Assembly: GCA_031835245.2 (NCBI GenBank)
Contig: JAVKOQ020000073.1
Span: 185,178 to 205,177, forward strand
Length of the DNA stretch: 20,000 bases
Direction: 5' to 3'
Source of the DNA: Balamuthia mandrillaris
Lineage: Eukaryota
The position numbers and the translations under genes are program-made. Shown here piece after piece: positions 14,774 through 15,364 of this stretch (positions are counted from its first letter, which is position 1; the number at the start of each line of letters is the position of its first letter). The notes beneath the pieces were generated by a model. It was not told where the DNA came from. It made no database searches and saw only the letters and a list, made by a program, of their open reading frames with translations.

Positions 14774-15364
14774 TTATGGTGGTTGTAGTTGTTGTTGTTG
14801 TTGGCTGCTGTCGTAGATCTTTTTCTTGTGTCGCATTGCATTCAAAAACCTTTTGTTCAATGCGGAGATCAAGCCATAAACTGAACACGTGCAGTGTGGA
14901 GCTCTTTGAAAGATCGAACCATGCCATACTTCTGCCGAATTGAAGATAACAGTTGCCAAGTCATGCAAGCGCACTGCACGATAGAATTGAGGGAAAAAAA
15001 AGGCCCATACCTCCCCTGCTGCATGATGCTTTTCATCATCGCTGCCATAAGGGCAATGGTTGCTTTGATCACAACCACGCCACCAAATCACAATGGCCAA
15101 TCCCTTTGCGTCATCTTGAGGATCCACATGCGGTGCTGAACTAAAATTCCAACTAAAAATAAGGTTTGTAGCAAAGCCTCTGCCAAGAAGAGTACCTCCG
15201 TTGGCCATCCTCACCACTGCCTCTAGGTAATGTTTCTGCGTTATCGATATCGTCTTTATTCCTTCTGATGATGATGATGACGATGATAACGATGACGATG
15301 ATGACGATGATGACAACGACGATGACGATGATGACAATGATGACAACGATGACGACGACGATGC

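Follow-up and report, generated by a model that had tools for sequence, protein, structure and literature searches.

The window analysed here, a 20,000-nt stretch of the genome of the amoebozoan Balamuthia mandrillaris, is a eukaryotic chromosome end with a TTAGGG array at positions 19854-20000; TTAGGG is the telomeric repeat of Balamuthia (bioRxiv 10.1101/2025.02.25.640156). Two short interior TTAGGG tracts, both on the plus strand, split the window into a region of host genes, block A and block B. The first tract (7419-7430, two TTAGGG units) is the candidate left edge of block A, and the second (15722-15745, TTAGG followed by three TTAGGG units), which adjoins poly-Glu codons, is its right edge. 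Positions 1-5023 are occupied by ordinary host genes recognised with Pfam, namely, a PP2C phosphatase with introns on the plus strand and a ferric reductase without introns on the minus strand. Just past the left tract, block A contains tandem repeats with units of 164 and 98 bases (7449-9286), in which the observed/expected CpG ratio is 0.46. Between the tracts at 7419 and 15722 lie a putative tyrosine recombinase (YR), denoted YR-A, on the plus strand and a TET/JBP-like gene on the minus strand; they are arranged tail to tail, as described in the first-pass annotation, and are separated by 386 bases when YR-A is read through its stop codon.

The TET/JBP-like frame is open for 315 codons (14774-15721, minus strand), from the TTAGGG tract to the stop codon, with no start codon ahead of the domain. 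The first-pass annotation placed the feature at 14774-15250 and thereby captured the catalytic half, but not the full extent: the domain begins ~350 bases further upstream (~15610) and contains an insert of ~80 residues. The catalytic half, a PF20515-like double-stranded beta-helix (14813-15260, minus strand), was delineated using Pfam, HMMER and an alignment of four sequences. It contains, in the open minus-strand frame, both iron-binding motifs pointed out previously: the HxD ligands (H-V-D, 15122-15130) and, within the WHGS motif (14926-14915, originally placed at ~14920), the distal His (14921-14923). Both motifs are invariant in the four aligned sequences. The last strand is CSVYGLISAL (14858-14887, minus strand). 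The N-terminal part of the domain (15440-15610, minus strand) comprises an R-x-x-Y motif (Arg at 15607-15605), DFPY and an LRPDL helix and matches the relatives P0004 and P0007, with respect to which the insert, with a poly-Ser tract at its core (15266-15394, minus strand), is evident in the alignment.

When P0002, the translation of 14774-15250, was compared with 24,736 Pfam families, the single match was to the Tet-like family PF20515 (E-value 4.9e-4; 20.6 bits, with a cut-off of 27), and this match vanishes once the Ser insert is included. A HMMER search of 1.84 billion representative proteins produced six matches: P0003; three true relatives, P0004 (E-value 9e-8), P0007 (9e-7) and P0008 (4e-4); and two repeat-protein artefacts, P0005 and P0006, that were discarded. 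P0003 is the NCBI Balamuthia mandrillaris protein QOT17_002518 (94% over the matched stretches), a model of the TET-like gene or of a close copy, which we rejected as the true product because its introns excise conserved strands. P0007 matches PF20515 above the cut-off (30.6 bits) and Tet_JBP with an E-value of 9.5e-4; P0008 falls below the PF20515 cut-off, and P0004 has no Pfam match. The His, Asp, His iron triad is invariant in all four aligned sequences (the window protein, P0004, P0007 and P0008). Thus, the family assignment is made from sequence and, in part, through P0007; on these grounds, the gene very probably belongs to the TET/JBP family, in agreement with its original identification. 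The Atlas neighbours of P0002 score 0.95, with Tet_JBP found on 16% and 27% of the members in two of the three listed clusters; recognition itself fell short of the threshold, which makes this a weak indication.

Structure adds slight support to this assignment. Two AlphaFold models built on four-row alignments were poor (pLDDT 41 and 36). In the structure comparison suggested at the outset, the low-confidence P0007 model retrieved with Foldseek almost exclusively 2OG-Fe dioxygenases, including CcTET, which had the top probability (0.99, E 0.04), but none of the matches reached E <= 0.001, and ALKBH2, with a better E-value, ranked above CcTET. The Foldseek list obtained with the P0002 model was meaningless, and VIA-align of the P0007 model returned generic beta-sandwiches (best Z 6.5); both were set aside. 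No PDB sequence matched the TET-like proteins, the TET profile search recovered its own members alone, and 0 of 333 candidates proved to be a longer fused form of P0002. Loci of the TET relatives were sought in IMG/VR, JGI contigs, GTDB genomes and phage records and were not found there; two candidates, L001 and L002, are chance matches of 18-32 residues with no TET nearby. The proposed connection to base J gained no support, and the TET-like frame, which lacks its N-terminus, has no Pfam match to the J-binding or SWI2/SNF2 partner domains of JBP1/2.

The frame is truncated at its 5' end. The DFPY...LRPDL helix (15586-15440) matches both full-length relatives, P0004 and P0007, and the alignment score of the N-terminal part was reached in 0 of 2000 shuffles against P0004 and in 9 of 2000 against P0007. 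The R-x-x-Y motif aligns with the relatives just ahead of the DFPY helix. Upstream of the Arg, however, the G-x-x-x-x-x-G strand of the relatives has no recognisable counterpart in the window; in its place is a charged, low-complexity, Glu/Lys-rich stretch that runs to the TTAGGG tract. The first Met of the frame (15493) lies within the helix, and counterparts of the N-terminal strands of P0007 and P0004 are absent from the frame. Because the frame opens on the TTAGGG tract and includes neither a start codon nor these strands, the copy is very probably inactive. Inactivity had been raised in the first-pass annotation as a possible consequence of a missing Arg; for this copy it is indeed the more probable condition, owing to the truncation and not to the Arg. 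Under the simplest reading of the junction, the chromosome would have broken within the gene, in the poly-Glu stretch, telomerase would have healed the broken end by adding TTAGGG repeats, and block B, as a second element, would have been joined distally afterwards. Introns that could change the reading of this region were considered as well. Among five donor-acceptor pairs that would excise the poly-Ser tract, a single one preserves the frame, at the cost of conserved sequence; a potential acceptor at 15606 was set aside, given that the preceding sequence is purine-rich and reads as Glu/Lys codons. Read depth falls near 15606, a drop that repeat masking by the read tool may explain.

The absence of the last-strand Arg noted in the first-pass annotation is real. 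In the four-sequence alignment, the column of the Arg that binds the 2OG C5-carboxyl holds Val in the window (14881-14879), Arg in P0007, Phe in P0004 and Ala in P0008, so that two of the three relatives have lost this Arg; the Gln column holds Ala in the window (14863-14861) and Gln in all three relatives. Among the first 27 of the 165 rows in Table S1 of Kojima 2025 (PMC12730594), inspected by eye, this column contains Arg in 17, His in 7, and Lys, Pro and Ser in one each, that is, 10 of the 27 fungal transposon TETs have no Arg, and 8 of these 10 replacements are His or Lys. His or Lys in this position may still bind 2OG; a hydrophobic residue remains unusual. The analogy with Chlamydomonas CMD1 that was drawn to interpret the missing Arg is wrong: CMD1 retains Arg410 and excludes 2OG with Trp358, and CcTET, NgTET1 and TET2 retain both 2OG-binding Arg (PMC7854593). 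Given that CMD1 switched its co-substrate yet kept the Arg, loss of this residue does not predict ascorbate use.

The non-basic residues in three of the four sequences (Val, Phe, Ala), combined with an invariant iron triad and with Pro and Ser in two of the 27 fungal rows (PMC12730594), could reflect a subfamily that, in intact copies, functions through an altered chemistry, with another co-substrate or product, or as a non-catalytic 5mC binder. We consider such a subfamily quite unlikely: the Arg column depends on an alignment of four sequences, CMD1 changed its co-substrate with the Arg in place, and most of the fungal replacements (8/10) possibly bind 2OG. The small Arg-less clade formed by the window protein, P0004 and P0008 is a lead toward unusual TET chemistry.

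The catalytic exon of YR-A (12270-13685, plus strand) encodes the R, R and Y of the R-H-R-Y tetrad (Arg at 12396 and 13191, Tyr at 13314), along with a Lys within 12597-12617, and neither catalytic His. The two usual His positions are presumably those held by Ile (13182) and Val (13287), in a register set by the usual motif spacing. Upstream exons are predicted, from splice sites in the sequence, at 10040-11824 (about 10040-10792, 10917-11462 and 11645-11824; plus strand). The stop codon at 13683-13685 is at a CpG-type site where the contigs of DNA run X1 have a sense codon instead (318/318 depth); in these contigs, the frame continues through a low-complexity region to 14387 (13686-14387, plus strand). 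Two other features were noticed here, a short Cys/His-containing frame upstream (9657-10022), a possible first exon with no meaningful Pfam match, and a telomere-like motif with one mismatch (12001-12011) within the predicted third intron. YR-A has no match in Pfam, PHROG, NCBIfam or PDB. Its Atlas neighbours (score 0.94) resemble integrases, one cluster carrying Phage_integrase at 24%, but have only 121-138 of 256 features in common with it. We regard YR-A as a probable YR that has diverged and whose activity is uncertain.

Whether the TET-like gene and YR-A travel together was assessed using reads for the stretch 12200-16800 from four of 24 runs, with 16 of 1,811 records and 40 of 108 variant rows considered. 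The four YR-A contigs of DNA run X1 have depths of 240, 238, 213 and 234, the TET contig has a depth of 210, and block B has 758 plus 951; in run X2, the depths are 21-27 for four contigs that match the window exactly and 147 (YR-A) and 233 (TET) for variant contigs. These depths, compared among contigs and not with a single-copy gene, do not equal copy number, and the apparent copies could instead be alleles if the genome is polyploid. According to the depths in X1 and X2, the dose of TET changes in step with that of YR-A and not with that of block B. One X1 contig fuses 14536 to 14833 through a different spacer, connecting the spacer on the YR side with the 3' end of TET, and a diverged YR-A contig in X1 differs at 16 of 190 bases. 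None of the contigs considered spans both YR-A and TET. The proposal that the TET-like gene is cargo of the YR-A element accordingly fits the matching depths and the joined contig, and a second full copy was not seen; we regard it as plausible, if slightly short of an even chance.

Matching depth and the joined contig would fit duplication of the whole block equally well. The two genes could be relics of separate elements co-copied by subtelomeric recombination, or alleles of one locus, and several observations agree with this: the Balamuthia genome is full of fragmented transposable elements, as yet without annotation (bioRxiv 10.1101/2025.02.25.640156), both His residues of YR-A are missing, and the published eukaryotic TET-carrying transposons that we examined encode DDE or HUH enzymes. 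However, the two genes converge at a distance of 386 bases, share low-complexity inserts of one style, and have no further transposase frame recognised beside them in block A, as judged by the ORF list and Pfam. We consider such passive neighbourhood somewhat unlikely.

RNA is scarce: of two runs with 12.9 million reads each, 32 and 5 reads match the stretch 12200-16800, most of them fitting only in part, and none of these covers block B or the core of YR-A (12354-13431). A 79-base GT..AG intron within the TET-like frame (14932-15010, minus strand) is spliced in three reads of run X23 and unspliced in two reads of run X21. Its removal eliminates two core strands, shifts the frame so that a stop follows after 20 codons, and abolishes the distal His. 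Such splicing may be noise or attenuation, which are indistinguishable here.

The differences among copies carry a pattern that cytosine methylation would cause. From the 40 variants considered, two microsatellite and five block B sites were removed, leaving 33 block A variants. Transitions among these are CpG-type in 15 of 26 cases compared with 23% expected (p 2e-4), or in 14 of 25 once an adjacent double change is discounted (p 5e-4), proportions that the choice of 40 of the 108 rows may bias. The coding CpG observed/expected ratio is 0.65 in block A against 0.77 in host genes, which is not significant (p 0.29), and 0.35 in block B (p 8e-4 against the same 0.77). Constraint appears mild: 14 of 27 coding variants listed are silent when pooled (p 0.012 at kappa 7), and the TET-like gene alone, with 4 of 7, shows no significant excess (p 0.12 at kappa 7). 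In Acanthamoeba, mobile elements are methylated and enriched in subtelomeres (PMC12210455). Because of this precedent and the CpG-biased block A variants, 5mC is a plausible substrate of the TET-like enzyme.

Block B (15746-19853) has TTAGGG on either side. It encodes a second recombinase, YR-B (16844-18652, minus strand), with a complete series of motifs (TGAR, K, HSLR, W, Y), an N-terminal Cys cluster, no Pfam match and no detectable likeness to YR-A. Next after it is a Myb gene (15996-16682; PF00249, E-value 1.6e-8) that ends in what we take to be a telobox-like motif (16085-16050). Up to position 16800, block B is 5-10 times deeper in reads than block A. Block B is thus a candidate for a YR element that targets telomeres, and it may be of greater note than the TET finding. 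Extending this line of thought, Balamuthia chromosome ends might carry a family of capsid-less, intron-bearing YR transposons that integrate into TTAGGG, with an Arg-less TET in block A writing a new or protective cytosine mark and, in block B, an intact YR guided to telomeres by an accompanying telobox-like Myb; we consider this scenario unlikely.

Our preferred explanation, offered tentatively and with a little less than even confidence, is that the 5'-truncated TET/JBP-type copy and YR-A move together as a single repeated element of subtelomeres, intact TET copies of which would oxidise 5mC and blunt host silencing. A Crypton-like element consisting of an intron-bearing YR and a convergent TET gene would have inserted into a telomeric tract, ahead of the breakage and healing outlined above; it would be mobile through YR-A, notwithstanding the absence of both His, and the activity of intact TET copies would offset silencing by analogy with fungal and algal TET transposons and the punuivirus. 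TET genes are cargo in 11 fungal transposon lineages, together with DDE or HUH enzymes (PMC12730594), as well as in Chlamydomonas transposons and a giant virus, and an anti-silencing role has been proposed. Several points count against the YR-plus-TET element: recombination can spread subtelomeric blocks with no need for a transposase; in addition to both His, a Pfam match is missing for YR-A; the last strand of TET has neither Arg nor Gln; RNA is scarce, and the three spliced reads destroy the TET core; and the coding CpG depletion of block A is not significant.

A viral origin was also weighed, in which block A is what remains of a Polinton-like or giant virus that became endogenous. Virus groups with both YR integrases and Tet-like genes are on record: the integrases of Polinton-like viruses are YRs, and a Tet-like gene is encoded by about half of the Alpensee (GKS2) group (bioRxiv 10.64898/2026.06.19.733378). 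Moreover, one Atlas neighbour cluster of P0002 is 50% viral, and Acanthamoeba subtelomeres accumulate viral DNA (PMC12210455). However, no capsid, ATPase or polymerase was matched among the frames scanned, block A being truncated; IMG/VR contains no relative of the TET profile, P0007, YR-A or YR-B; and spliceosomal introns are predicted in YR-A, which also contains microsatellites like those of the host. A viral remnant thus appears very unlikely.

In the literature that we surveyed, mainly outside subscription journals, we found neither a capsid-less YR carrier of TET nor such elements in Balamuthia. If the YR-plus-TET element is real, a capsid-less YR carrier in Amoebozoa would have acquired this anti-silencing tool independently, and a conflict over 5mC would be indicated at the chromosome ends of a pathogen that has received little study. 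Because the window copy is probably a relic, its value is that of a pointer to intact members of the family.

Among the known systems, the enzymes CcTET, NgTET1 and TET2 share the HxD...H triad with the window protein and differ from it in keeping both Arg and in having no PDB-level sequence match to it. CMD1 is similar in that it is a TET homologue aboard a Chlamydomonas DNA transposon and a weak Foldseek match, but differs in its retained Arg410 and Trp358 gate and shows no sign of special kinship with the window gene. Polinton-like viruses resemble block A in that their class includes YR integrases and Tet-like genes, with a proposed anti-silencing role (bioRxiv 10.64898/2026.06.19.733378), but virion genes were not found in the window frames scanned, and YR-A has predicted introns. 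Cryptons (Kojima and Jurka 2011, PMC3212892) are similar in encoding a YR without reverse transcriptase or long terminal repeats. Their 4-6-base terminal direct repeats could have a counterpart in the TTAGGG tracts on both sides of block A, yet the right edge of the block cuts the TET gene, and YR-A lacks the His of the R-H-R-Y tetrad; in the parts of the Crypton text consulted, neither TET cargo nor telomere targeting was encountered. Finally, PU-type TET/JBP proteins of rust-fungus DNA transposons (Kojima 2025, PMC12730594), which, by our own reading, are matched by the PF20515 profile, come with DDE or Helitron enzymes, whereas the neighbour in this amoebozoan host is a tyrosine recombinase, and a term search of the main text of that paper returned no mention of tyrosine recombinases or Cryptons. 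The window copy also stands apart from the PU-type in its hydrophobic residue in the Arg column, its lost Gln and its truncation. The likeness lies in the strand order and motifs, compared by eye, namely, a G-x-R strand (in the relatives), F-x-N-x-x-H-x-D, F-x-F-P, H, and a last strand with G-x-S-x-Q, as well as in the frequent replacement of the last-strand Arg (10/27 rows) and in the mobility gene that adjoins the TET gene.
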